Shown here: one piece after another, positions 357 to 61,520 of the stretch | Position numbering within the stretch: position 1 is the stretch's first letter | Layout of the letters: each line of letters opens with the position of its first letter | Source: Bryobacterales bacterium | Lineage (GTDB): Bacteria; Acidobacteriota; Terriglobia; Bryobacterales; UBA6623 | DNA length: 64,000 bases | Assembly (NCBI GenBank): GCA_965248365.1 | Contig: CBDFJA010000004.1 | Span: 662,187-726,186, forward strand | Direction of reading: 5' to 3' | Notes under the pieces: model-generated | What the model was told of the DNA's origin: nothing | Seen by the model: only the letters and a program-made list of their open reading frames with translations | Databases searched by the model: none | Position numbers and translations under genes: made by a program

Positions 357-443
357 CGCGCGGCCGGGCCCTCGTGCCTCAATCTCGTTGAAAACTTCGC
401 GGGTAGGCGTTCATGTGTGTCCCGCCCCGGCAGCCGGCAGCCG

Positions 444-622
444 GGGAGGCGAAGTGCGTGAGAGGCCCCTCAGTACAAGGCGCGCGCCGCCCAGCGCCCC
501 GTTTCTTGAACCATGCGGGCTCCTTCCTTGATCCCTACGTTGAACACGGCGAGCAAGCGCAACGCAGTAATGGCGGGCCTATTGCGTGCTTCGACCGTCA
601 GGTGGTGAGAAATGCGGGCTAG
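444..622 (+). repeat. R1 repeat, copy a (left terminus missing)
   Basis: Aligns to the other R1 copies from GGCGAAGTGCGTGAGAGGCCC through GTGGTGAGAAATGCGGG|CTAG (619-622). Confidence 0.85.
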
Positions 623-1227
623 GATCGCCAGCGGTTGACGAACCATTTCGTCCGCCGGACGTCACAAAGCCGCGGGTCCGGACCTTCTTCCCCGAGAAGA
701 ACCGCCAGCCGCTCCAGATGGCTCCAACCGCAAATGACCAGCGTATTGCGAGTCCGGCCGCCGTGCCGCCTCAGCTTGTCGTACATGAACCGCTCTCGGA
801 GCGCTTGCCAGCGGGCGACTTGCCCGGATGGATATCGGGCGTCCGGCTGGAGATAGTCGCCCGGAATCCCCAGCTTGCGTCTTTCTTGCTTGACGGCGTC
901 AATGGTGACGTATTCGCATCCGTGGGTGTCGGCGAGTTTTTGAGCGATGGTTTCCTCCCCGGCGCGGGTCTCCTCACCGATCAAATCGATCGCATGCTTG
1001 CCGATCAGCCCCTCCAGCATCCGCAAAAAATGATGCTTCTGACCGTGTTCGATCTCGGCGTCGCCAATACCGAGGCTCGCCCTCGGCTGCAAGCTGTGTT
1101 CGCAGCCTACCAAAACGATTGTGGCCGGCAAACTTTGATTGCCTCTCCAAAGTTCGCCGCCGCGCCCCCACCAAGTCGGCCAGGGAACACCCGCCCGCGC
1201 GGCCCCGAAACAACCGTCTGATCGCAT
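619..1227 (-). CDS. Conserved hypothetical protein
   Basis: 202-aa ORF with protein-like segments (IVLVGCEHS, AIDLIGEE, LVICGWSHLERL). Its TAG stop (619-621) lies in the CTAG flank of R1 copy a, as seen for three other genes. The overlapping plus-strand ORF 586..1221 is less protein-like. Confidence 0.45.
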   Translation of the reverse strand: MRSDGCFGAARAGVPWPTWWGRGGELWRGNQSLPATIVLVGCEHSLQPRASLGIGDAEIEHGQKHHFLRMLEGLIGKHAIDLIGEETRAGEETIAQKLADTHGCEYVTIDAVKQERRKLGIPGDYLQPDARYPSGQVARWQALRERFMYDKLRRHGGRTRNTLVICGWSHLERLAVLLGEEGPDPRLCDVRRTKWFVNRWRS

Positions 1228-1557: not shown

Positions 1558-1757
1558 CTAGCTCGCTTTTCTCACCACGTGGCGAGGCGAAGTGCTTGAG
1601 AAGCCCGTCAGTACAAGGCGCGCGCCGCTCAGCGCCGCATTTCTTTAATAATGCGGGCGTACTTGAACCCTACGTTGAGCACGGTGAGCAAGCGCAACGC
1701 GGTAGTGGCGGGCTTATTGCGTGCTTCGACCGTCAGGTGGTGAGAAAAGCGAGCTAG
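1558..1757 (+). repeat. R1 repeat, copy b (full length, CTAG/CTAG flanks)
   Basis: CTAG|CTCGCTTTTCTCACCAC ... GTGGTGAGAAAAGCGAG|CTAG. The terminal inverted repeat is perfect and the element is one long imperfect palindrome. Confidence 0.9.
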
Positions 1758-3161: not shown

Positions 3162-3434
3162 CTAACCCGTTTTTCTCACCACGTGGCGAGGCGAAGTGCG
3201 TGAGAGGCCCGTCAGTACAAGGCGCGCGCCGCTTGGCGCCGCATTTCTTGAATGATGCGGGCGTACTTTCGCGGGTGCAGCCTAGCCATTCGTATTGTGG
3301 CTCTAGCGAAAGAAGTAGCGACCCGCGTTCGACGCCCGACCGGGAAAGTACATTGAGCAAGGCGAGCACGCGCAACGCAGTAATGGCGGGCCTATGGCGT
3401 GCTTCGACCGTCGGGTGTGAGAAATGCGGGCTAA
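3162..3434 (+). repeat. R1 repeat, copy c (CTAA/CTAA flanks, expanded apex)
   Basis: CTAA|CCCGTTTTTCTCACCAC ... GTGTGAGAAATGCGGG|CTAA. 81 nt lie between the two apical GTAC motifs (3263-3266, 3348-3351), against 7 nt in other copies. Confidence 0.85.
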
Positions 3435-3503
3435 CCCGGCGGCGTTCCCGCGGGCGCGCGCCACCTAGTGAGTCTCGCAAGTTATGGTCACATCGTCCGC
3501 GTT

Positions 3504-5064: not shown

Positions 5065-5598
5065 TCAGAAACCTTCGAGCACGGCGGAAACCAGGCTCCG
5101 CGCCAACCCGTCGCCCGTCCGCGCCAAGGCGGCCCGCCTCTCCTCCAAATAGGCTTCCGGATCGATCGTGACCTCGTAGCGCTCACGGTACTCGAAGGCC
5201 GGGTTCTGGTAGATCACCTTGGCCGTGTTGCGCTCGATCAACGCGACCTGGACCTGGGTCAGAGTGGCAACGCTGGTCGACCGGCCCGTCTTGGGGTCGA
5301 ACACGACGGGGAAAACGAAGAAGTTGAGTACCGTGCCCGTCAGGGTCGCGTCGGCCTCCGCCGGGTCGCTGACGATCCGATAGCGCGTGCGCGTCATGAA
5401 TTCCTGTGCGACCGCGCTGGTCACGTACTGCTCGATCTTGAATTCGGTCGTGTTGTTTCTAAACGTGGGAATGGCGATGGTGTGGACGGTATCGGGTACC
5501 GTGTCGGCGCGTCCCGCCAGGCGATAGCCGCAGGAGCCGGCGGAAAAAGCAACCGCCAACCAGACGACGGCGGAACCATACGCGGGGTTAACGCGCAT
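5065..5598 (-). CDS. lptE: LPS-assembly lipoprotein LptE-like
   Basis: 177 aa with a lipoprotein signal ending in a lipobox (AFSAGSC). Followed by IAIPTFRNNTTEFKIEQ. The lptE-holA gene order is conserved. Confidence 0.7.
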   Translation of the reverse strand: MRVNPAYGSAVVWLAVAFSAGSCGYRLAGRADTVPDTVHTIAIPTFRNNTTEFKIEQYVTSAVAQEFMTRTRYRIVSDPAEADATLTGTVLNFFVFPVVFDPKTGRSTSVATLTQVQVALIERNTAKVIYQNPAFEYRERYEVTIDPEAYLEERRAALARTGDGLARSLVSAVLEGF

Positions 5599-5660
5599 TT
5601 CTCACCACCTGACGCCTCTCGCGCACTTCGCCCCGCCAGCTGGTGAGAAAAGCGGGTTAG
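5588..5660 (-). repeat. R1 repeat, copy d (73-bp internally deleted mini-copy, TTAA/TTAG flanks)
   Basis: Retains both R1 termini (TTAA|CGCGCATTTCTCACCACCTGACG ... CTGGTGAGAAAAGCGGG|TTAG). It overlaps the lptE start codon. Confidence 0.8.
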
Positions 5661-5824
5661 CGCGCCTTCGAGCGTACAACGGCGCCATTCCTTTGTGGGG
5701 ACCAAGCTTCCCGAACGGCGGACACGAGCCCGCGGAAGAGTTTGCCCCATCTAGGCAAATAAAACAAGCGCTACTCAACATGTTGTAGTCAAAAACGCCG
5801 AATTTCGTTCTCGGTGACAGAGTC

Positions 5825-6706
5825 CTAGCGCGGGTCCGCGACCGACTCCCTGACCGCGTGTTCCGACCTTGCGACCGACCGGCGTCGGCGCCGAAACAGC
5901 CCCCCAATGCGCGTCACAATGCCGCTGAGCACGAAGGTGGAGGCCATCGCCAGCAACACCGGCTCCGAGAAGTTCCAGATGAGATAAATCAAAGTCGCGA
6001 AGAAAACGACCATCACCAACGACGGAATCTGGAGAAGACCGACGTCCTTCAAGCTCGCATACCGCCAAGTCGAGATCATCAGAAATGAAAGCAGCGCGAT
6101 CAGCACCAGCCAGAGAATGCCCCAGGGCCACCAATTCTGGATCGGGTACCCACCGCAAAAGTGCACGACCGCGGCCAGCATCCCCGCGGCCGGAGGAATC
6201 GGCAGACCCACGAAGTAGCGGCGTCCGGGGTGCCCCGGGTTCTTCGGCGTCGGATTTTTCTGCACGTTGAAGCGCGCCAGGCGGGCGGCGCCGCAGGTCA
6301 GGTAAAGGAACGTCATCAGGTACCCGATGGCCGGCAGCCAGTCGGCCAACCAGAGGCCGGCGGCCAGCTCAGGGGAGCGAATCCCCCAGGCGAAAGCCAG
6401 CGTGGCCGGCGCGACGCCGAACGTGATCGCATCGGCCAGCGAGTCGATCTCACGTCCAAAGTCGCTGACGGCGTTGGTCATCCGCGCTATGCGGCCATCC
6501 ATGCCGTCGGTAAACACCGCCAGACCGATGGCCAAGGCGGCGTGGTTGTAAAGCCGGGCCGCCTCGTCTCCCAGGTCGGGCGGCAGCGAGATCGCCTGTA
6601 CGGTCTTCATCAGGCAGTAGTAGCCGCAAAACAGCGTACCCACAGTGAAAACCGTAGGCAGGGCATACGTTCGACGAGGGTTCCTCGTGGTTTGGATTTC
6701 GCCCAT
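5825..6706 (-). CDS. pssA: CDP-diacylglycerol--serine O-phosphatidyltransferase
   Basis: CDP-alcohol phosphatidyltransferase motif DGMDGRIARMTNAVSDFGREIDSLADAITFG. Polytopic membrane protein, immediately downstream of psd. Confidence 0.85.
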   Translation of the reverse strand: MGEIQTTRNPRRTYALPTVFTVGTLFCGYYCLMKTVQAISLPPDLGDEAARLYNHAALAIGLAVFTDGMDGRIARMTNAVSDFGREIDSLADAITFGVAPATLAFAWGIRSPELAAGLWLADWLPAIGYLMTFLYLTCGAARLARFNVQKNPTPKNPGHPGRRYFVGLPIPPAAGMLAAVVHFCGGYPIQNWWPWGILWLVLIALLSFLMISTWRYASLKDVGLLQIPSLVMVVFFATLIYLIWNFSEPVLLAMASTFVLSGIVTRIGGLFRRRRRSVARSEHAVRESVADPR

Positions 6707-7348: not shown

Positions 7349-7486
7349 CTAACCTGCTTTTCTGCTTTTGAAATAGGCCCTGTCTGTAACATGAATTACG
7401 TTACGGGGCATATTTTCATTTCGCGGGCCGGACGAAGTTCATCGTCACTCACCAGGTGGCGAGGCGAAGTACGTGAGAGGAGCGGG
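7349..7486 (+). repeat. R3 repeat, copy a (R1-like terminus, different core)
   Basis: CTAA|CCTGCTTTTCTGCTTTTGAAATAGGCCCTGTCTGTAACATGAATTACGTTACGGGG..., ending in an R1 left-arm-like CTCACCAGGTGGCGAGGCGAAGTACGTGAGAGG. Homologous to 61328-61520 and 30440-30490. Confidence 0.7.
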
Positions 7487-11386: not shown

Positions 11387-11613
11387 GTAGCGCGATACAC
11401 ATTTCTGAAACTCTTTGCTCGGTAGGTGCTCGATCAGTTGGGAGAAAACCGTACGGCCAAGGTTCATCCCTCATTGTGCCGCGTCCGGATGCTCCGTTCA
11501 GGCGACCATTTGCGGCCTCGGGATTTCAAATCGTTCCCGGGCAAAACAGGCCATAAGACATTGAGCGGTCGAGACTTACCGTCCGATGGCGCGACTTTCC
11601 CCGGACAGCACTG
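11387..11613 (-). mobile_element. Remnant (227 bp, IRL end plus the first 27 codons) of the 1329-bp IS
   Basis: Identical to the IRL-proximal part of copies B and C, ending ...CCGGACAGCACTG at 11613. The rest of the IS is absent. Confidence 0.9.
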
Positions 11614-11665
11614 ACAAGTACTATTGCACGTTCACTCGATTATCTTCCAAGGAGGCAAACCAGGC

Positions 11666-11989
11666 ATGGGCAATCTGATTCTTACTCTTCTGGCACAAGG
11701 GGCATTGTTAGCCTCCATCACGCTCACGGCCACCGGCCATCGATCGGACGTCGGCCGGCGGCAGATGGCCGAGCAGCAAACGAAAGGGGCAACGCTAATT
11801 TGGGAAAACCCCGGATCTCCAATTCCAGTTCAACAGAGTGACCGGGGATGTTGTGTTCTAAGGTGTTCAGCCAGCCAACCGAGGCGGTTTTATACCACGA
11901 GGAGGAATTGCACCGAGGCAGCGGGGAGACCCGGGTGCTCGTCCTCGTTCCACAAGGATCGGCGCTGTGGGGACGTTCGAAGCGACTGA
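11666..11989 (+). CDS. Small hypothetical protein with signal-peptide-like N-terminus (doubtful)
   Basis: AGGAGG lies 10 nt upstream of the ATG. The N-terminus MGNLILTLLAQGALLASITLTATG looks like a signal peptide. The C-terminal half is Arg/Cys-rich and uses rare codons, so a frameshift or non-coding status is possible. Confidence 0.25.
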   Translation: MGNLILTLLAQGALLASITLTATGHRSDVGRRQMAEQQTKGATLIWENPGSPIPVQQSDRGCCVLRCSASQPRRFYTTRRNCTEAAGRPGCSSSFHKDRRCGDVRSD

Positions 11990-22965: not shown

Positions 22966-23099
22966 AATTGTTGAGGGGCCTCAGGGCCTCCGGTATGAGA
23001 TAACGGAGAAAACCAAAGGTCGAGGCGCCCAGAGACAGCGCAACCGGGAGCGGGATCAAGCCCGGTAAACTGATGACACGGGCGGCGCGCGGCAAGCTG

Positions 23100-23130
23100 C
23101 GACCGTCAGCTCGCGAGAAAAGCGGGCTAG
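23100..23130 (+). repeat. R1 repeat, copy f (right-terminal stub)
   Basis: GACCGTCAGCTCGCGAGAAAAGCGGG|CTAG, followed immediately by GAGG, so the junction reads CTAGGAGG. Confidence 0.6.
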
Positions 23131-23144
23131 GAGGTATACCTCTA

Positions 23145-23948
23145 ATGATGAAACCCAAACTTAAACTTTTTGGACTTGGTCTGGTTGGGGCGGCCATCCT
23201 TTCGGCCGCGAACTTTTGGGAGACGAAAGATTACACCGAGTGGAGCGCGAAGGAAGTCCGCAGAATCCTTAACAATTCTCCCTGGGCGAAAAAGGTCACC
23301 CTCAGCTTCGGGGGCATGGGTGGCCCGGGCGGACAAGGGTCTCGCGGCGGGTACGGCGGCGGAGCCGGTGGCGGCCGTGGTGGCGGCGGCGGCGGCGGAG
23401 GATTTGGCGGCGGTGGTGGCGGAGGCGGCGGTGGCGGAGGATTTGGTGGCGGTGGTGGCGGTGGCGGCGGAGCTTCCCGCGGTGGCGGCGGCTATAACCG
23501 CGCCGGTGGCGGCCGCATGCCTCCCTCCCCTGAACTTACGATTCAGTGGTCCAGCGCCCTGCCCATCAAGCGGGCCCTGATGAGAGGCCGTTTCGGCAAC
23601 GAGGCCCACACGGCCGCGGAATCCAAGCAGTTCCTTGAAAGGCGCGAGACGCACTACGTTGTCTCGGTGGCCGGGTTCTCGGGCCGTATGGCGGGCATGT
23701 CGAAGAACACGGATCGTCTCAAGGAAACCACCTCCCTGAAGCGCAAGAATAAAGATCCCATTCACCCTGAGATCGTTCAAACGCATAGGCGGGAGGAGTC
23801 TGTTACCTTGTTCGTCTCCTTCCCGCGTACCGACCCGATCGCGCTCGAAGACAAGAACGTAGAGTTCGAGATGAAGCTCGGACCGATGACGCTCAAGCGC
23901 AAGTTCAAGCTGAAAGACATGGTTTTCGACGGCAAGCTCGAGCTCTGA
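23145..23948 (+). CDS. Secreted hypothetical protein with poly-Gly tract
   Basis: An AGGAGG RBS precedes MMKPKLKLFGLGLVGAAILSA (signal peptide). Followed by NSPWAKKV and about 70 residues of G-rich sequence, including two tandem 39-bp units (23397-23474). Confidence 0.65.
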   Translation: MMKPKLKLFGLGLVGAAILSAANFWETKDYTEWSAKEVRRILNNSPWAKKVTLSFGGMGGPGGQGSRGGYGGGAGGGRGGGGGGGGFGGGGGGGGGGGGFGGGGGGGGGASRGGGGYNRAGGGRMPPSPELTIQWSSALPIKRALMRGRFGNEAHTAAESKQFLERRETHYVVSVAGFSGRMAGMSKNTDRLKETTSLKRKNKDPIHPEIVQTHRREESVTLFVSFPRTDPIALEDKNVEFEMKLGPMTLKRKFKLKDMVFDGKLEL

Positions 23949-25927: not shown

Positions 25928-26180
25928 CGGGAGGAGAAGCCTTTTCTCGCCCCTCGCCTGGGAGAAGGATGACACAGGGGCCAGCCTCCTTCCCACCCCG
26001 AGTCGAGGCCGATCGTTCATCGCGCCACGGAGACACTTGACACGCTCGCTATTCTGAAGGAGGAGACCACGAGCCCGGCACGACGCTCGACGGGCGAATT
26101 AAGAAAAAGCGAAACCAACCCAATTTCGCGGAACCGACTTGTAGTCAATGGGTTACGGTGGTCCGGGAGCGGGGGGCTGA

Positions 26181-26240
26181 CTAGCCTGCATTTCTCGCCA
26201 CCTTCGAGGCGAAGTTCGTGATAGGCCTCGCCGTTGAACC
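26181..26240 (+). repeat. R1 repeat, copy g (left arm only)
   Basis: CTAG|CCTGCATTTCTCGCCACCTTCGAGGCGAAGTTCGTGATAGGCC... Confidence 0.65.
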
Positions 26241-28227: not shown

Positions 28228-28370
28228 CTGATCGTCCGGGTAACGTGGCGCACGCATTCTTGCGTGCCGTGTCGCCATTCGTGGCGACATCGAGTCTCGG
28301 CGTGGCCCCGGCTTTCAGTGTGCTGTGTCGAGCTTTCGATCCCAACATTTCCGCATCTATTGTGAACTCA
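28228..28370 (+). repeat. R2 structured repeat, copy b
   Basis: CTGATCGTCCGGGTAACGTGGCGCACGCATTCTTGCGTGCC, then a perfect hairpin TGTCGCCA-TTCG-TGGCGACA (28270-28289), then ...GCTTTCAGTGTGCTGTGTCGAGCTTTCGATCCCAACATTTCC. Confidence 0.8.
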
Positions 28371-28383
28371 TTTCAAGGGCGGG

Positions 28384-30439: not shown

Positions 30440-30490
30440 ATGCCGTAACGTAATTCATGTTACAGACAGACCTATTTTCAAAATAGAAAG
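30440..30490 (-). repeat. R3 repeat, copy b (core fragment)
   Basis: ATGCCGTAACGTAATTCATGTTACAGACAGACCTATTTTCAAAATAGAAAG matches the R3 core in reverse orientation. Confidence 0.7.
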
Positions 30491-44705: not shown

Positions 44706-44981
44706 TCAGTTCGTCTCGCGAATGCAGAATAGCGCCGTCTCGCTGCGCAGGAGAATTTCGCCGTTGGCGATCGCTGGCGAGGCAACGAAGGTCTGTCCCG
44801 CAAGCGTGTTGGTCGCCAGTACTTCGTACTTCTCTCCCATTTTGAGGACAATCACGTCCCCCTCTTCGCTCGACAGGTAGAGTTTGCCGTTGGCGCCGAC
44901 GAGCGAGGCCTTGAACTTGTAAGGTTTGGGGGGGCGCTGCTGTTTGTAGTAGGGCACCCCGGTCGTGGCGTTATAGCAGCT
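44706..44981 (-). pseudogene. C-terminal fragment of a beta-propeller (PQQ/BamB-like repeat) protein, 5' part removed by IS copy A
   Basis: ...GANGKLYLSSEEGDVIVLKMGEKYEVLATNTLAGQTFVASPAIANGEILLRSETALFCI. The reading frame runs straight into the IS end at 44982. Confidence 0.55.
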
Positions 44982-46310
44982 CAGTGCTGTCCGGAGAAAG
45001 TCGCGCCATCGGACGGTAAGTCTCGACCGTTCAATGTCTTATGGCCTGTTTTGCCCGGGAACGATTTGAAATCCCGAGGCCGCAAATGGTCGCCTGAACG
45101 GAGCATCCGGACGCGGCACAATGAGGGATGAACCTTGGCCGTACGGTTTTCTCCCAACTGATCGAGCACCTACCGAGCAAAGAGTTTCAGAAATGTGTAT
45201 CGCGCTACCGCGGCGATTCCTATCTGAAAAGTTTCTCCTGCTGGGATCAGTTTCTTGCGATGGCATTCGCCCAGCTGACCTATCGGGCAAGCCTCCGCGA
45301 CATCGAGACGTGCCTGCGTTCGATGCACGGCAAACTCTACCACATGGGATTCCGCGGCAGGGTAGCGCGCTCGACACTGGCCGATGCGAACGAGTCGCGC
45401 GACTGGCGGATCTACGCGGACTTCGCGCAGGTCTTGATTGGCATGGCACGGCCGTTATATGCCCACGACCCGATCGGTGTGGACTTGGACCAGACTCTGT
45501 ACGCTCTCGACTCGACAACAATCGACCTCTGCCTGTCGCTGTTTCCGTGGGCGAGATTCCGCAAGCAAAAGGCCGCCGTGAAGATGCCCACGCTGCTGGA
45601 TCTGCACGGCAATATTCCCACGTTCATCCGCATTACTGGAGGCAAAGTGCACGACATCAACATCCTCGACGAGATCGGCCCGGAGGCCGGCGCGTTCTAC
45701 GTCATGGATCGGGCCTACGTCGATTTCGAACGCCTCTTCGTGTTCACTCTCTGCTCGTCGTTCTTCGTCGTGCGAACCAAGAAGAACATCTTGCTCCAAC
45801 GGCGCTACTCGCATCCCGTCGACAAATCCACGGGCTTGCGCTCGGATCAGACCGTCATACTGGCTGCCATCGAATCGGCCCAAGCCTATCCCGACCCGTT
45901 GCGGAGGGTCAGTTACTTCGACGCCCGGACGAACAAGCGGCTGAAGTTTCTGACCAACAACTTCGCGCTCCCGGCGCTGACCATCGCCCACATCTACAAG
46001 TCGCGTTGGCAGATTGAGTTGTTCTTCAAGTGGATCAAGCAACATCTGCGAATCAACTCGTTTTACGGCACCAGCGAGAACGCCGTCAAGACGCATATCT
46101 GGATCGCTGTCTCGATTTACGTGCTCATCGCCATCGTCCGGAAACGGCTCGGGCTGGAAGCGAGTCTTTACCAGATTCTACAGATTCTCAGCGTTACGCA
46201 ATTCGAAAAAATGCCCCTTTTACAGGCACTCCAGCCATCCGACTCCCCAAACGAATCCCCCTATGACCCCAACCAATTGATTCTATTCGACTTTTAACCG
46301 GACAGCAGTG
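44982..46310 (+). mobile_element. 1329-bp IS (IS4/IS5-superfamily), copy A
   Basis: Ends CAGTGCTGTCCGG... and ...CCGGACAGCAGTG. Nearly identical to copies B and C. Confidence 0.9.
45128..46297 (+). CDS. DDE transposase of the 1329-bp IS (copy A)
   Basis: 389 aa. The N-terminus MNLGRTVFSQLIEHLPSKEFQKCVSRYRGD..KSFSCWDQFLAMAFAQLT is typical of DUF4372-type IS4-family transposases. FYVMDRAYVDF and SRWQIELFFKWIKQHL motifs. Confidence 0.9.
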   Translation: MNLGRTVFSQLIEHLPSKEFQKCVSRYRGDSYLKSFSCWDQFLAMAFAQLTYRASLRDIETCLRSMHGKLYHMGFRGRVARSTLADANESRDWRIYADFAQVLIGMARPLYAHDPIGVDLDQTLYALDSTTIDLCLSLFPWARFRKQKAAVKMPTLLDLHGNIPTFIRITGGKVHDINILDEIGPEAGAFYVMDRAYVDFERLFVFTLCSSFFVVRTKKNILLQRRYSHPVDKSTGLRSDQTVILAAIESAQAYPDPLRRVSYFDARTNKRLKFLTNNFALPALTIAHIYKSRWQIELFFKWIKQHLRINSFYGTSENAVKTHIWIAVSIYVLIAIVRKRLGLEASLYQILQILSVTQFEKMPLLQALQPSDSPNESPYDPNQLILFDF

Positions 46311-47037: not shown

Positions 47038-48366
47038 CACTGCTGTCCGGTTAAAAGTCGAATAGAATCAATTGGTTGGGGTCATAGGGGGATTCGTTTG
47101 GGGAGTCGGATGGCTGGAGTGCCTGTAAAAGGGGCATTTTTTCGAATTGCGTAACGCTGAGAATCTGTAGAATCTGGTAAAGACTCGCTTCCAGCCCGAG
47201 CCGTTTCCGGACGATGGCGATGAGCACGTAAATCGAGACAGCGATCCAGATCTGCGTCTTGACGGCGTTCTCGCTGGTGCCGTAAAACGAGTTGATTCGC
47301 AGATGTTGCTTGATCCACTTGAAGAACAACTCAATCTGCCAACGCGACTTGTAGATGTGGGCGATGGTCAGCGCCGGGAGCGCGAAGTTGTTGGTCAGAA
47401 ACTTCAGCCGCTTGTTCGTCCGGGCGTCGAAGTAACTGACCCTCCGCAACGGGTCGGGATAGGCTTGGGCCGATTCGATGGCAGCCAGTATGACGGTCTG
47501 ATCCGAGCGCAAGCCCGTGGATTTGTCGACGGGATGCGAGTAGCGCCGTTGGAGCAAGATGTTCTTCTTGGTTCGCACGACGAAGAACGACGAGCAGAGA
47601 GTGAACACGAAGAGGCGTTCGAAATCGACGTAGGCCCGATCCATGACGTAGAACGCGCCGGCCTCCGGGCCGATCTCGTCGAGGATGTTGATGTCGTGCA
47701 CTTTGCCTCCAGTAATGCGGATGAACGTGGGAATATTGCCGTGCAGATCCAGCAGCGTGGGCATCTTCACGGCGGCCTTTTGCTTGCGGAATCTCGCCCA
47801 CGGAAACAGCGACAGGCAGAGGTCGATTGTTGTCGAGTCGAGAGCGTACAGAGTCTGGTCCAAGTCCACACCGATCGGGTCGTGGGCATATAACGGCCGT
47901 GCCATGCCAATCAAGACCTGCGCGAAGTCCGCGTAGATCCGCCAGTCGCGCGACTCGTTCGCATCGGCCAGTGTCGAGCGCGCTACCCTGCCGCGGAATC
48001 CCATGTGGTAGAGTTTGCCGTGCATCGAACGCAGGCACGTCTCGATGTCGCGGAGGCTTGCCCGATAGGTCAGCTGGGCGAATGCCATCGCAAGAAACTG
48101 ATCCCAGCAGGAGAAACTTTTCAGATAGGAATCGCCGCGGTAGCGCGATACACATTTCTGAAACTCTTTGCTCGGTAGGTGCTCGATCAGTTGGGAGAAA
48201 ACCGTACGGCCAAGGTTCATCCCTCATTGTGCCGCGTCCGGATGCTCCGTTCAGGCGACCATTTGCGGCCTCGGGATTTCAAATCGTTCCCGGGCAAAAC
48301 AGGCCATAAGACATTGAGCGGTCGAGACTTACCGTCCGATGGCGCGACTTTCCCCGGACAGCACTG
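47038..48366 (-). mobile_element. 1329-bp IS, copy B
   Basis: CACTGCTGTCCGG at 47038 and CCGGACAGCACTG ending at 48366. Inverted relative to copy A. Confidence 0.9.
47051..48220 (-). CDS. DDE transposase of the 1329-bp IS (copy B)
   Basis: 389 aa, with 1 aa difference from copy A (H/Q). Confidence 0.9.
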   Translation of the reverse strand: MNLGRTVFSQLIEHLPSKEFQKCVSRYRGDSYLKSFSCWDQFLAMAFAQLTYRASLRDIETCLRSMHGKLYHMGFRGRVARSTLADANESRDWRIYADFAQVLIGMARPLYAHDPIGVDLDQTLYALDSTTIDLCLSLFPWARFRKQKAAVKMPTLLDLHGNIPTFIRITGGKVHDINILDEIGPEAGAFYVMDRAYVDFERLFVFTLCSSFFVVRTKKNILLQRRYSHPVDKSTGLRSDQTVILAAIESAQAYPDPLRRVSYFDARTNKRLKFLTNNFALPALTIAHIYKSRWQIELFFKWIKQHLRINSFYGTSENAVKTQIWIAVSIYVLIAIVRKRLGLEASLYQILQILSVTQFEKMPLLQALQPSDSPNESPYDPNQLILFDF

Positions 48367-48980
48367 ATGCAAGCTAGCAAGCCGCCGACCGCCATCAGCA
48401 TCATCAAATAGGGAGCCGCTACCGGGTCGAACACGCCGAAGAGTTCACTGGCCGTCTTCGAACCCACCCAGGCGCCCAGGGAACTGCCCACGCCGACCAA
48501 AGGAAACAGCCGCTTGCCCTGCTCTTCGGTAAAAACGTCGTTCGCGAAGGCCCAAAACTGCGCGATCACCAGAACATTAAAAATGCCGATCCACAGAAAG
48601 AAGGCCACGCCGACCCGTACGCCCGAGACGCCCAAGACAGCGAAGATTCCGAGATGAGAGATGAAAGAAAGCGTCACCCAAGTAATCAGGCGAGTGCGGT
48701 TGACCTTGCCCGCAAACGCTCCGTAAGCAGGGACCACGGCCAGCAGCAGAAGAGCCTGGCCCGCCGCGGCATAGCTCTTGATCTCAGCGCCGCCCTCGCT
48801 GAGGATGAGGGCTTCCCGGACCGTCTTGAGCAGATAGTAAGAGGCGAGCAGCAGGAATACATTGGCGGCGAGTAACAGCGCGGTGGCGCCTTCGCCGGGT
48901 TTGACCTGGCTGAAAACCGAAAGGGCCTTGTCCAGAAGCCCTTTCTTCCCCTCCGCGATGGGCTTAACAACCTCTTGCAT
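48367..48980 (-). pseudogene. 5' fragment of a TLC/AAA-family (ATP:ADP antiporter-like) transporter, truncated by IS copy B
   Basis: MQEVVKPIAEGKKGLLDKALSVFSQVKPGEGATALLLAANVFLLLASYYLLKTVREALILSEGGAEIKSYAAAGQALLL... Only about 200 aa (6 helices) remain before the IS end. Confidence 0.5.
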
Positions 48981-49152
48981 GGTCGAGCCCCAGGGCCTTG
49001 GCGGCCGAGACAAGCAACCAGTGTAACAGCCCGCCGTGGCCTCCTTCCGAGATGCCGATGCCCTTCCAGCACGAGGCGGGTCGACGTCGGATCAAGCGCC
49101 GCGACGGACGCCCGGCCGCCGAGCTCTAGCCGTCTGTTTCAGACAAAACCGT

Positions 49153-49363
49153 CTGATCCTCCAGGCGACGTGGCGCGCGCATTCTTGCGTGCCGTGTCGC
49201 CATTCTTGGCGACATTTCTCATTGCTGCGCCGGCCCTTCTGCCGGGCATTGGGATGCCGGCAAGCATGCCGGCACAGCACGCTGAAAGCGTGCGCCACGT
49301 CGTTGTCAAGCCGATCAGATCCTGTCGCTTTCGAGCCCGACATTCTCAAATCCGTGGTGAACC
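49153..49363 (+). repeat. R2 structured repeat, copy c (long form with inverted duplication)
   Basis: CTGATCC..GACGTGGCGCGCGCATTCTTGCGTGCC, the hairpin TGTCGCCA-TTCT-TGGCGACA, ... GCACGCTGAAAGCGTGCGCCACGTC..GATCAG, ending TGTCGCTTTCGAGCCCGACATTC. Confidence 0.8.
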
Positions 49364-49386
49364 CGTTTCGAGAACAGGCCACCCGC

Positions 49387-49814: not shown

Positions 49815-49888
49815 TGGGAGGTAGTGTAACGGTAACACGACAGATTCTGGATCTGTTTATCGGGGTTCGAGTCCCTGCCTCCCAGCCA
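49815..49888 (+). tRNA. tRNA-Gln (anticodon CUG)
   Basis: Manual cloverleaf: acceptor TGGGAGG/CCTCCCA, D arm GTGT-AACGGTA-ACAC, anticodon arm ACAGA-TTCTGGA-TCTGT, T arm CGGGG-TTCGAGT-CCCTG, G73, encoded CCA. 74 nt. Confidence 0.9.
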
Positions 49889-51130: not shown

Positions 51131-52459
51131 CACTGCTGTCCGGTTAAAAGTCGAATAGAATCAATTGGTTGGGGTCATAGGGGGATTCGTTTGGGGAGTC
51201 GGATGGCTGGAGTGCCTGTAAAAGGGGCATTTTTTCGAATTGCGTAACGCTGAGAATCTGTAGAATCTGGTAAAGACTCGCTTCCAGCCCGAGCCGTTTC
51301 CGGACGATGGCGATGAGCACGTAAATCGAGACAGCGATCCGGATCTGCGTCTTGACGGCGTTCTCGCTGGTGCCGTAAAACGAGTTGATTCGCAGATGTT
51401 GCTTGATCCACTTGAAGAACAACTCAATCTGCCAACGCGACTTGTAGATGTGGGCGATGGTCAGCGCCGGGAGCGCGAAGTTGTTGGTCAGAAACTTCAG
51501 CCGCTTGTTCGTCCGGGCGTCGAAGTAACTGACCCTCCGCAACGGGTCGGGATAGGCTTGGGCCGATTCGATGGCAGCCAGTATGACGGTCTGATCCGAG
51601 CGCAAGCCCGTGGATTTGTCGACGGGATGCGAGTAGCGCCGTTGGAGCAAGATGTTCTTCTTGGTTCGCACGACGAAGAACGACGAGCAGAGAGTGAACA
51701 CGAAGAGGCGTTCGAAATCGACGTAGGCCCGATCCATGACGTAGAACGCGCCGGCCTCCGGGCCGATCTCGTCGAGGATGTTGATGTCGTGCACTTTGCC
51801 TCCAGTAATGCGGATGAACGTGGGAATATTGCCGTGCAGATCCAGCAGCGTGTGCATCTTCACGGCGGCCTTTTGCTTGCGGAATCTCGCCCACGGAAAC
51901 AGCGACAGGCAGAGGTCGATTGTTGTCGAGTCGAGAGCGTACAGAGTCTGGTCCAAGTCCACACCGATCGGGTCGTGGGCATATAACGGCCGTGCCATGC
52001 CAATCAAGACCTGCGCGAAGTCCGCGTAGATCCGCCAGTCGCGCGACTCGTTCGCATCGGCCAGTGTCGAGCGCGCTACCCTGCCGCGGAATCCCATGTG
52101 GTAGAGTTTGCCGTGCATCGAACGCAGGCACGTCTCGATGTCGCGGAGGCTTGCCCGATAGGTCAGCTGGGCGAATGCCATCGCAAGAAACTGATCCCAG
52201 CAGGAGAAACTTTTCAGATAGGAATCGCCGCGGTAGCGCGATACACATTTCTGAAACTCTTTGCTCGGTAGGTGCTCGATCAGTTGGGAGAAAACCGTAC
52301 GGCCAAGGTTCATCCCTCATTGTGCCGCGTCCGGATGCTCCGTTCAGGCGACCATTTGCGGCCTCGGGATTTCAAATCGTTCCCGGGCAAAACAGGCCAT
52401 AAGACATTGAGCGGTCGAGACTTACCGTCCGATGGCGCGACTTTCCCCGGACAGCACTG
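51131..52459 (-). mobile_element. 1329-bp IS, copy C
   Basis: CACTGCTGTCCGG at 51131 and CCGGACAGCACTG ending at 52459. Same orientation as copy B. Confidence 0.9.
51144..52313 (-). CDS. DDE transposase of the 1329-bp IS (copy C)
   Basis: 389 aa, with 2 aa differences from copy B (P/H, W/R). Confidence 0.9.
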   Translation of the reverse strand: MNLGRTVFSQLIEHLPSKEFQKCVSRYRGDSYLKSFSCWDQFLAMAFAQLTYRASLRDIETCLRSMHGKLYHMGFRGRVARSTLADANESRDWRIYADFAQVLIGMARPLYAHDPIGVDLDQTLYALDSTTIDLCLSLFPWARFRKQKAAVKMHTLLDLHGNIPTFIRITGGKVHDINILDEIGPEAGAFYVMDRAYVDFERLFVFTLCSSFFVVRTKKNILLQRRYSHPVDKSTGLRSDQTVILAAIESAQAYPDPLRRVSYFDARTNKRLKFLTNNFALPALTIAHIYKSRWQIELFFKWIKQHLRINSFYGTSENAVKTQIRIAVSIYVLIAIVRKRLGLEASLYQILQILSVTQFEKMPLLQALQPSDSPNESPYDPNQLILFDF

Positions 52460-52557
52460 TACTTGAACAGTACGTTGAGCACGGCGAGCAAGCGCAACAC
52501 AGTAATGGCGGGGCTATTGCGTGCTTCGACCGTCAGGTGGTGAGAAATGCGGGCTAG
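52460..52557 (+). repeat. R1 repeat, copy h (right half only, cut at the apex by IS copy C)
   Basis: TACTTGAACAGTACGTTGAGCACGGCGAGCAAGCGCAAC...GTGGTGAGAAATGCGGG|CTAG. Confidence 0.85.
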
Positions 52558-52705
52558 GGGAGTTCAGACTTGCGGTGTCGCAAGCAGGCCGGTATAAAGA
52601 ACTAAAGTTCCCCCGGCTGTATTCTAGGGGATCAGGTCCTCACGGACAGGAAACAGAGTTTCTGAACCGCTGAGTCCCGCGAATCATGCTGCCACGGCCT
52701 GTGTC

Positions 52706-54186: not shown

Positions 54187-54371
54187 CTAGCCCGCTTTTC
54201 TCACCACGTGGCGAGGCGAAGTGCGTGAGAGGCCCGTCAGTACAAGGCGCGCGCCGCTCGGCGCGCGGAGGCGTACTCGAACAGTACGTTGAGCACGGCG
54301 AGCAAGCGCAACGCCGTAATGGCGGGCCTATTGCGTGCTTCGACCGTCAGGTGGTGAGAAATGCGGGCTAG
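54187..54371 (+). repeat. R1 repeat, copy i (intact, CTAG/CTAG flanks)
   Basis: CTAG|CCCGCTTTTCTCACCAC...GTGGTGAGAAATGCGGG|CTAG. 185 bp. Confidence 0.9.
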
Positions 54372-54518
54372 GCGGAACGGCCTCGAACCTCTTGCTTGAC
54401 CAACTACGCCTCGGCGCGCAGGGCCGTTGCCGATCGGCGCTTCCCATCCGCCCGGGTGCTCGAATTCGTTTTGCAGTGCGGCGACTTTCTGCCTAGAATA
54501 AAGTGGGCGGTGAAACGA

Positions 54519-60390: not shown

Positions 60391-60720
60391 ATGGCTGAAG
60401 ACCATAGTGATACAAGCTTGGCCTGGTTCCTGGCGGGAGCCGCTCTGGGAGCCGCGGGGGCCTTGTTGCTGGCCCCACAGTCGGGAAGCGAAACAAGAGA
60501 GGTGCTACGTCGTAGGACGCTCGAAGGCCGCGAGAGGCTGAACAAGTCGGGAAGAGAAGCCTTCGAAAAAGGCCGCGAGCTTTACGACCGTGGTAAAGAG
60601 GTGGCGGAGGACGCGGCTGAGCTGTTCGAGCAGGGGCGAAAAGTGGTTAGCGAGAAGTTTTCTCCCGTAGGCTCGGGGTCGCAGGACGGCGAACCGGAAA
60701 AGCAGGAGTCAGCCACCTAA
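60391..60720 (+). CDS. YtxH-domain protein
   Basis: LAWFLAGAALGAAGALLLAPQSGSETREVLRR followed by a charged helical tail. 109 aa. Confidence 0.75.
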   Translation: MAEDHSDTSLAWFLAGAALGAAGALLLAPQSGSETREVLRRRTLEGRERLNKSGREAFEKGRELYDRGKEVAEDAAELFEQGRKVVSEKFSPVGSGSQDGEPEKQESAT

Positions 60721-60916
60721 CCTGCGTTTCTCACCAGCTGACGGTCGAAGCACGCCATAGGCCCGCCATGACTGCGTTGCGCTTGCTCACCGTGCTCAAC
60801 GTACTGTTCAAGTACACCCGCATTATTCAAGAAATGCGGCGCCGAGCGGCGCGCGCCTTGTACTGAGGGGCCTCTCACGCACTTCGTCTCGCCACGTGGT
60901 GAGAAACGCAGGCTAA
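60717..60916 (-). repeat. R1 repeat, copy j (full length, CTAA/CTAA flanks)
   Basis: CTAA|CCTGCGTTTCTCACCAGCTGACGGTCGAAGCACGCC ... GCCACGTGGTGAGAAACGCAGG|CTAA. Confidence 0.9.
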
Positions 60917-61327: not shown

Positions 61328-61520
61328 CTAGCCCGCATTTCTCGCCACCTGACGGTCGAAGTGCGCCATAGGCCCGCCATTACGTCGTTACGTTTGTCCA
61401 CCGCGCTCAACCGGTGGTGAGTCACCATGAACTTCGTCCACCCCGCAGCACGAAAATATGCCCCATAACGTAATTCATGTTACAGACACGGCCTATTTTC
61501 AAAACAGAAAAGCGGGTTAG
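61328..61520 (-). repeat. R1/R3 hybrid element (CTAG/TTAG flanks)
   Basis: The left part equals the R1 right arm in reverse (CTAG|CCCGCATTTCTCGCCACCTGACGGTCGAAGTGCGCCATAGGCCCGCC...). The right part equals the R3 core (...CCCCATAACGTAATTCATGTTACAGACACGGCCTATTTTCAAAACAGAAAAGCGGG|TTAG). Confidence 0.75.

Follow-up and report, generated by a model that had tools for sequence, protein, structure and literature searches.

An R1 repeat inserted in the first codons of lptE of a Bryobacterales bacterium evidently supplies the present start of the gene

A stretch of 64,000 nucleotides from a Bryobacterales bacterium (Acidobacteriota; assembly GCA_965248365.1, contig CBDFJA010000004.1, positions 662,187 to 726,186), hereafter the window, encodes a putative lipopolysaccharide (LPS)-assembly lipoprotein, LptE, whose initiation codon lies within a short copy of a dispersed repeat, R1. 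R1 is evidently a non-autonomous element with terminal inverted repeats (TIRs), or MITE (miniature inverted-repeat transposable element), mostly 180-200 bp in length. Comparison with related genomes indicates that the ATG, the Shine-Dalgarno (SD)-like box and the first codons of lptE derive from this element, which evidently landed inside the ancestral coding sequence, at the CTAA of codons 7 and 8 (GCT AAC). The locus thus offers a before-and-after case in which a mobile element swaps the start codon, the RBS (ribosome-binding site) and the signal peptide's charged end, and the envelope gene is not destroyed. The whole explanation that we favour, an element-derived start read by stop-restart coupling from the ancestral start, is moderately probable.

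The insertion in lptE and its empty site in relatives

The site is uninterrupted in four relatives (L001, L096, L097 and L002, from different samples, with LptE proteins 85-90% identical to that of the window), and therefore the element must have inserted within the ancestral lptE. The relatives read ...CGAAGGCG.G.TAACCG... without a break, in the layout of an AAGGAA SD sequence, an 8-nt spacer and TTG (T/G)xx CCT CGA AGG CGx G(C/A)T AAC CGx, and their target tetranucleotide is single (CTAA, ATAA or CTAG), whereas the window has it twice (CTAA...TTAA) and reads TTG TAC GCT CGA AGG CGC G-CTAA-(65 bp)-TTAA-C CCC GCG TAT GG. The closest LptE proteins (88-90% identical) begin M(L/F)PRRR(A/D)NR..., not MRVN. 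AAGGAA is kept in four of the five aligned relatives (L001, L096, L097 and L002) and differs in the more distant L098; the 8-nt spacer between the SD sequence and the TTG differs at 5 positions between the window and L001, yet both the SD sequence and the TTG are kept. An earlier note on this DNA, made from the window alone, had asked for this alignment of the 5' regions of lptE; four relatives proved to lack R1 there and to possess the TTG start and the AAGGAA sequence, and the position implied by that note, upstream of the gene, gives way to one inside the ancestral coding sequence.

The insertion amounts to 69 bp, a multiple of three, and includes an in-frame TGA (5604-5602); being in frame but carrying a stop codon, it splits lptE in two. 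Among the loci compared, the filled site was seen in the window alone, its junction pattern was not found in Joint Genome Institute (JGI) metagenome contigs, and the collections searched gave no exact match to the LptE or the HolA protein of the window. L001, which has the empty lptE site, possesses R1 elsewhere, as a full copy directly after holA (11618-11801) and as a rearranged short copy (L001:7774-7849), so that both lineages have the family and the insertion in lptE is specific to one of them.

On the minus strand, positions 5660-5588 read CTAACCCGCTTTTCTCACCAGCTGGCGGGGCGAAGTGCGCGAGAGGCGTCAGGTGGTGAGAAATGCGCGTTAA, 73 nt, identical letter for letter to the string quoted earlier, and consist of a CTAA direct repeat (5660-5657), a 65-bp core (5656-5592) and a TTAA direct repeat (5591-5588). 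In alignment with full-length copies, the left arm is retained for about 43 nt and the right arm for about 22 nt, and the middle is gone, which bears out the original description of a copy with only its two ends; "internally deleted mini-R1" is a fair name for it. The target duplication comprises at least TAA and is 3 or 4 bp long at this copy; the internal deletion may have preceded or followed insertion. Other mini copies (58-64 bp) occur in related genomes, with internal junctions that differ from that of the lptE copy, and the arms of the latter depart from the consensus of the family at about 10% of positions.

The ATG (5598-5596) lies within the terminal motif of R1, AGGTGGTGAGAAATGCG, and no start further upstream can serve the body of lptE because of the in-frame TGA. 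A protein begun at the ATG passes a lipoprotein signal rule (a PROSITE-style pattern, with the Cys required at 15-35), with Cys23 as the lipobox residue and Arg2 as the sole K/R among the first seven residues. Both the stop codon and the lipobox rule agree with the earlier view that this ATG, inside the conserved motif, is the only plausible start. The new N-terminus M-R-V-(N) combines element and target duplication, Arg2, which the element encodes, being the sole positive charge that remains in the n-region; the derivation of M-R-V-N from the element, as first proposed, holds for codons 1-3, which are element DNA, and needs amendment for codon 4, which is built on the duplicated TAA. The ancestral TTG (5679-5677) and the codons after it align with the lptE starts of L001, L096, L097 and L002, and open a remnant open reading frame (ORF) of 25 codons that shares its frame with the body of lptE and ends 3 nt before the new start (TGA-GAA-ATG).

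The gene itself matches the LptE family of Pfam (PF04390; E = 7.5e-10, with 39.9 bits where the cut-off is 23) and has homologues mostly in Bryobacterales-like Acidobacteriota, the best of them 88-90% identical and several of them named LptE by their sources. It is flanked by pssA and holA, in the order psd-pssA-lptE-holA that is also found in L001, L002 and L098; in E. coli, lptE is likewise directly upstream of holA. Proteins of the LptE class plug LptD and are required for LPS export, a role that is putative for this protein. Coordinates are collected in Table 1.

Table 1. Features of lptE, its R1 copy and other R1 copies in the window
Feature	Position	Strand	Remarks
lptE, LPS-assembly lipoprotein, 177 aa	5065..5598	-	Pfam PF04390; 95 homologues
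Downstream in-frame TTG, codon 14, rejected start	5557..5559	-	9 residues before Cys, no K/R; lipoprotein rule failed
Right target copy TTAA	5588..5591	-	Supplies base 3 of codon 3 (GTT) and bases 1 and 2 of codon 4 (AAC)
RNA hairpin of the two terminal repeats	5589..5659	-	Predicted; encloses SD-like box, TGA and ATG
R1 core, internally deleted, 65 bp	5592..5656	-	Alignment with full-length copies; missing at the orthologous site in L001, L096, L097, L002
ATG evidently derived from the element, present lptE start	5596..5598	-	In-frame TGA two codons upstream; lipobox rule passed
SD-like box AGGTGGTGA	5602..5610	-	In right terminal repeat; last three bases are the TGA ending the remnant ORF
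Remnant ORF MYARRRANPLFSPAGGAKCARGVRW	5602..5679	-	Native TTG, 7 native codons and 18 element codons; lptE frame, stops at TGA
Left target copy CTAA	5657..5660	-	Within ancestral codons GCT AAC
Native SD AAAGGAA of ancestral lptE	5688..5694	-	8 nt upstream of TTG, retained
Full-length R1, reference, 199 bp	1559..1757	+	Alignment
Full-length R1	54188-54372	+	Alignment
Full-length R1	60717-60915	-	Alignment
R1 variant with extra internal insert	3163-3436	+	Segment of about 75 bp (about 3268-3345) unseen in other copies; adjoins rpsT
R1 variant, degenerate left end	419-623	+	Alignment
Partial R1 copies	52459-52558, 61328-61411, 26180-26227		Alignment

R1 ends at the starts of other genes

Copies elsewhere were taken from a scan for R1 ends that covered one genome per species and yielded at least 93 stretches, the genome of the window lying outside it. 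R1 supplies the sole feasible gene start in 2 to about 5 of the 93 listed copies. The squalene/phytoene synthase of L086 (517-1401) starts at an R1 ATG; its Pfam domain runs from residue 17, and codon 36 would be the next possible start. The half-R1 of this gene is directly preceded by ATGC-CTAG, which predicts a native MPSV... start, and the closest orthologue (94% identical) does begin MPSVDESFAYC where the L086 protein begins MRASVEESFAYC, so that by alignment the case is verified as an independent start replacement. The major facilitator superfamily (MFS) transporter of L043 (2126-3406, minus strand) begins MRASTGISVSGY, and its next possible start, codon 34, lies inside the first transmembrane segment; GTG and three native codons are found just upstream of the full-length R1, a 96%-identical protein of another assembly has the MRAS start too, and the native N-termini of distant orthologues match in length. 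All three genes (lptE and those of L086 and L043) have kept the native start upstream, and in each the frame is open as far as the same TGA, which precedes the R1 ATG by 3 nt.

The earlier notion of a portable initiation cassette does not hold within the window, where the remaining terminal ATGs of R1 lead into ORFs of 8, 12, 12, 14, 16 and 34 aa and none starts a gene, but finds support elsewhere, in the verified case of L086 and in the MFS gene of L043. Beyond the R1 ATG, 20 listed copies have 100 or more open codons in its frame versus 11 in the +1 frame, and 10 versus 4 have 300 or more, the third frame always being closed by a TAG of the element itself; the excess of long ORFs is modest and suggestive only. 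Replacement of starts by a few percent of copies fits a survivorship filter and gives no indication of a dedicated function of the element. An open frame through R1 was also considered as a selected property and rejected, because 45 of 109 copies (about 40%) are open in the frame of the remnant ORF (frame 0) and 46 and 31 in the other two, without enrichment. It is conceivable, although we hold it to be doubtful, that AGGUGGUGA-GAA-AUG at the right end of the element constitutes a compact SD-stop-start unit that lets in-frame insertions into first codons survive, with N-termini repeatedly becoming M-R-A/V-x (lptE, L086, L043); if so, the element could colonise 5' coding regions, even of essential genes.

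Two further Bryobacterales metagenome-assembled genomes (MAGs), L052 (3640-6204, minus strand) and L028, have an R1 end 4 nt upstream of the candidate TTG start of a PBP1A-type gene, with the R1 ATG in the reading frame of the gene (MRASRLGAIV...). This insertion is common to two species, so the displacement of the native SD sequence has persisted. In the window (23084-23129 and 23143 onward), an R1-type end that stands alone and has AAG instead of ATG stops at CTAG and is followed directly by GAGG, giving GGAGG across the junction; an 11-nt spacer then leads to ATGATG. This ATGATG, about 15 nt downstream of the element end, is the likely start of a secreted protein that has a long Gly-rich tract (tandem repeats at 23332-23497).

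Translation from the element-derived start

Pairing of the SD-like box with the 3' tail of 16S rRNA is predicted at -12.0 kcal/mol, compared with -6.7 to -8.0 kcal/mol for native SD sequences (the tail being a generic one, not that of this organism), and 6 nt separate the GGUGG core of the box from the AUG. The two terminal repeats are predicted to fold into a hairpin with a minimum free energy of -38.5 kcal/mol (z = -3.7; 1 of 200 shuffles equally stable), whose stem recurs in a prediction with 141 nt of context and, in this mini copy, belongs to the 27-bp class. In it, the box and the AUG are paired throughout, with a predicted unpaired probability of about 0, so that free-standing initiation by the module is unlikely on this model. 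The earlier note had judged the box to be at a workable spacing; the spacing of 6 nt and the good pairing with the generic tail agree with it, but box and ATG would be paired within the hairpin. The predicted hairpin (5659-5589) falls wholly inside the remnant ORF (5679-5602) or at its end. As an intrinsic terminator it was rejected, there being no U-run after it.

The native SD sequence and TTG, which still open an ORF through the element, are a further correction to the earlier note. Retention of these two signals, the passage of the ORF through the whole hairpin and the stop codon 3 nt before the AUG together suggest translational coupling, for and against which the odds are roughly even, given the element-derived start. 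Direct loading of 30S subunits at the buried SD-like box and AUG would be unlikely; ribosomes from the native TTG would instead melt the hairpin while reading the remnant ORF, stop at the UGA and, with the help of the SD-like box, begin anew at the AUG that lies 3 nt further on, the coupling acting via RNA unfolding and/or reinitiation. The insertion would have survived by virtue of an orientation and frame that happened to set the element ATG in frame with lptE, as about one insertion in six would do.

Several points weigh against coupling. It is read from predicted structure and layout, and the SD pairing energy from a generic 16S tail that is not from this organism. The three of three start replacements with an open frame compare with a background of about 0.4 (p about 0.06), and among R1 copies the ATG frame is open no more often than the others, with no sign of the element having evolved for the role. 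The PBP1A-type genes of L052 and L028 are in frame with the R1 ATG but have no upstream ORF through the element; at these loci either the R1 ATG would work uncoupled or the TTG at codon 6 would be the real start. The PBP1A loci, together with the strong predicted pairing of AGGTGGTGA, its 6-nt aligned spacing and its ATG, would suit an R1 end that acts as a free-standing ribosome-binding site, for which the remnant ORF is irrelevant. That view, to which we give a minor share of the probability, has to contend with the complete burial of box and ATG in the predicted stem, with the native start and open frame to the TGA kept in all three well-supported replacements, and with the short ORFs (34 aa or less) at the other R1 ATGs of the window.

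Loss of the gene is improbable. The native start has been severed from the gene body, the filled site was not found in JGI contigs, and a second lptE may exist elsewhere in a genome of which the data comprise only the window, a further point against the reading that we favour; lptE would then be a recent pseudogene, dispensable or replaced in function by another copy. Its 177-codon ORF is intact, however, with dN/dS of 0.135 relative to L001, and the protein still satisfies the signal-peptide and lipobox rule. The divergence of the arms from the consensus also argues against a very recent event, although a diverged source copy could explain it as well, and the analogous R1 start of the MFS gene, being common to 96%-identical proteins, persists through divergence. 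Initiation at the downstream TTG (5559-5557), with the element sequence as 5' untranslated region, has in its favour that TTG is the native start type of lptE in relatives, and the earlier note had named it as one finding that would overturn its proposal. The resulting protein (M-AVAFSAGS-C) would have its Cys at position 10 and no K/R, failing the rule that the ATG-initiated protein passes; no SD-like sequence precedes this TTG, and the same codon (TTG or CTG) is an internal Leu in all relatives, so that the possibility is a very slim one. Read-through of the UGA (5604-5602), producing a functional fusion from the native TTG, would profit from the frame shared by remnant ORF and lptE, and is exceedingly improbable, since the lipobox Cys of such a fusion would be at about residue 50, outside the range of 15-35, and a signal for read-through is not apparent. 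Read-through normally accounts for only a small part of termination events.

The R1 family, comparable elements and the surroundings of lptE

R1 is a MITE with ends of the IS1380-family type. Its termini, CCCGC(T/A)TTTCTCACCAC, are inverted at both ends, with imperfect similarity extending to about 48-55 nt. The 17-nt terminal motif (at most 3 mismatches) occurs 15 times in the window against 0.22 expected, a number that none of 100 shuffles reached. Beyond the window there are at least 93 copies, mostly in about 15 Bryobacterales MAGs among the matches listed, which also include a few from MAGs labelled Gammaproteobacteria, Pirellulales and Terriglobales. Sizes, known from at least 100 distinct copies, fall into a main class of 180-200 bp and minis of 58-73 bp; no long ORF and no transposase was found inside R1 elements. 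The flanks are CTAG/CTAG in 45 of the 88 copies listed, and those other matching flanks that are not CTAG/CTAG are identical as direct repeats in 11 cases (TTAG, CTAA, ATAG) and solely as inverted repeats in none, which supports duplication of a YTAR target.

The family of these ends is indicated by a 1746-bp insertion sequence (IS) in L068 (2554-4300), which has the terminal 17-21 nt of R1 identically at both ends and encodes a 485-aa transposase (PF13701, DDE_Tnp_1_4; E = 1.5e-156). It counts against this assignment that the matching IS1380-family element comes from a MAG with the label Gammaproteobacteria instead of a Bryobacterales genome, and that the IS1380-like elements of Bryobacterales L036 and L076, whose transposases are 26-29% identical to that of L068, have no more than about the first 10 nt of the end (CCCGCATTT) in common with R1; an IS with identical ends was not found in the Bryobacterales loci compared. 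The exact 23-nt R1 end is also present in L009, L020, L034, L038, L077, L084 and L085 (Gammaproteobacteria Ust_6), in L044, in L068, in L049 (Pirellulales), and in L013 and L075 (Terriglobales). R1 ends in MAGs of other phyla, among them those of the L068 IS, the sole IS1380-family element found with identical ends, may reflect either spread of the IS across phyla or binning contamination.

A 1330-bp IS of the window was rejected as parent of R1, its ends (CAGTGCTGTCCGG) being unrelated; it carries DUF4372 and DDE_Tnp_1. It is present in three 100%-identical copies (44981-46310, 47038-48367 and 51131-52459) and a 228-bp fragment (11387-11614), and two of the copies are direct repeats 4093 bp apart around a tRNA gene (49815-49885). 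The copy that ends at 52459 abuts the right half of an R1 (52459-52558) and thus seems to have inserted into an R1 copy. A search of the window with Rfam at gathering thresholds returned the tRNA alone, R1 matching no RNA family. Mosaics at 61328-61520 (minus strand), 7349-7454 and 30443-30483 join the right arm of R1 to a module TTTTGAAATAGGCC...GTAACATGAATTACGTTACGG, which occurs without R1 too.

Donation of gene ends by repeats is already documented, and the lptE case belongs with these examples without introducing a new principle. One of them is MITEAba12 of Acinetobacter, which is reported to generate the first four residues (MQQS) of neighbouring coding sequences (PMC6382973); in both, a TIR of a MITE reads outward with a start codon, yielding M-R-A/V-(S/N/R) in R1. 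Unlike R1, MITEAba12 is 113 bp long and related to IS5 (ISAba12), its fusions come from annotation without empty-site comparison, and no stop-restart layout or hairpin sequestration is described for it (PMC6382973). An outward promoter has been proposed for MITEAba12, whereas R1 at lptE has no sigma-70-like site in 5400-6000, a scan that is blind to other promoter types. In Neisseria REP2 and in the IR repeats of Borrelia, promoter, RBS and ATG are all present (reviewed in PMC3184786). REP2 has no TIRs, has a promoter and lies upstream of a co-regulated gene set (PMC3184786), in contrast to R1, a TIR element with target duplications that supplies a start in only a few percent of its copies; with no outward promoter site and no regular positioning at gene starts, R1 does not qualify as a cassette of the REP2 kind. 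The pneumococcal BOX element, in which boxC can encode a start codon (PMC3049150), resembles R1 as a small interspersed repeat that gives terminal codons of ORFs, but BOX-started ORFs are hypothetical and lack a good SD sequence (PMC3049150), whereas R1 has done so in a conserved envelope gene with an SD-like box.

In coupled gene pairs the upstream ribosome unfolds the downstream RBS and/or reinitiates (reviewed in PMC12548453). The lptE locus is similar in its stop and start codons 3 nt apart, its SD sequence before the restart codon and its upstream ORF running through a predicted inhibitory hairpin, and differs in that the upstream ORF is a transposon-made remnant of 25 codons, not a functional cistron, and in that coupling is here predicted. 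Target duplications of the IS1380 family are short, 4-5 bp. That of IS1247 is 5 bp (PMC3281130). R1 resembles this family (e.g. IS1247, ISEcp1) in that its ends are those of the L068 IS, and differs from it in having no transposase and a length of about 190 bp (65 bp at lptE). A description of IS1380-derived MITEs in Acidobacteriota was not found in the literature searched, the coverage of which is incomplete. Particular to the present case are an essential-type envelope gene with its signal peptide, four empty sites, IS1380-type ends in Acidobacteriota and a stop-restart layout in a predicted hairpin. If that layout works, small elements could spread into the 5' ends of coding sequences and be a recurrent source of N-termini in soil Acidobacteriota.

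Upstream of lptE, about 100 bp (5722-5822, minus strand) between the pssA stop codon (5827-5825) and the conserved lptE leader are missing from L001; searched as a repeat, this segment was unique among all sequences compared. It holds a terminator-like hairpin followed by a T-rich stretch (5814-5798), and if this hairpin ends pssA transcripts, lptE would require a promoter of its own. A different small repeat is found in L002 (10020-10160), flanked by CTAG at a CTAG between pssA and the lptE SD sequence; the pssA-lptE junction has been struck independently by two element families. Gene callers may mis-start or split genes altered in this manner; the lptE of L002 was extended to 239 aa by the gene caller, owing to the small element upstream. 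The L002 repeat is 87% identical to positions 1465-1554 of the window, and its family is also represented at 28298-28378 and 49152-49377.

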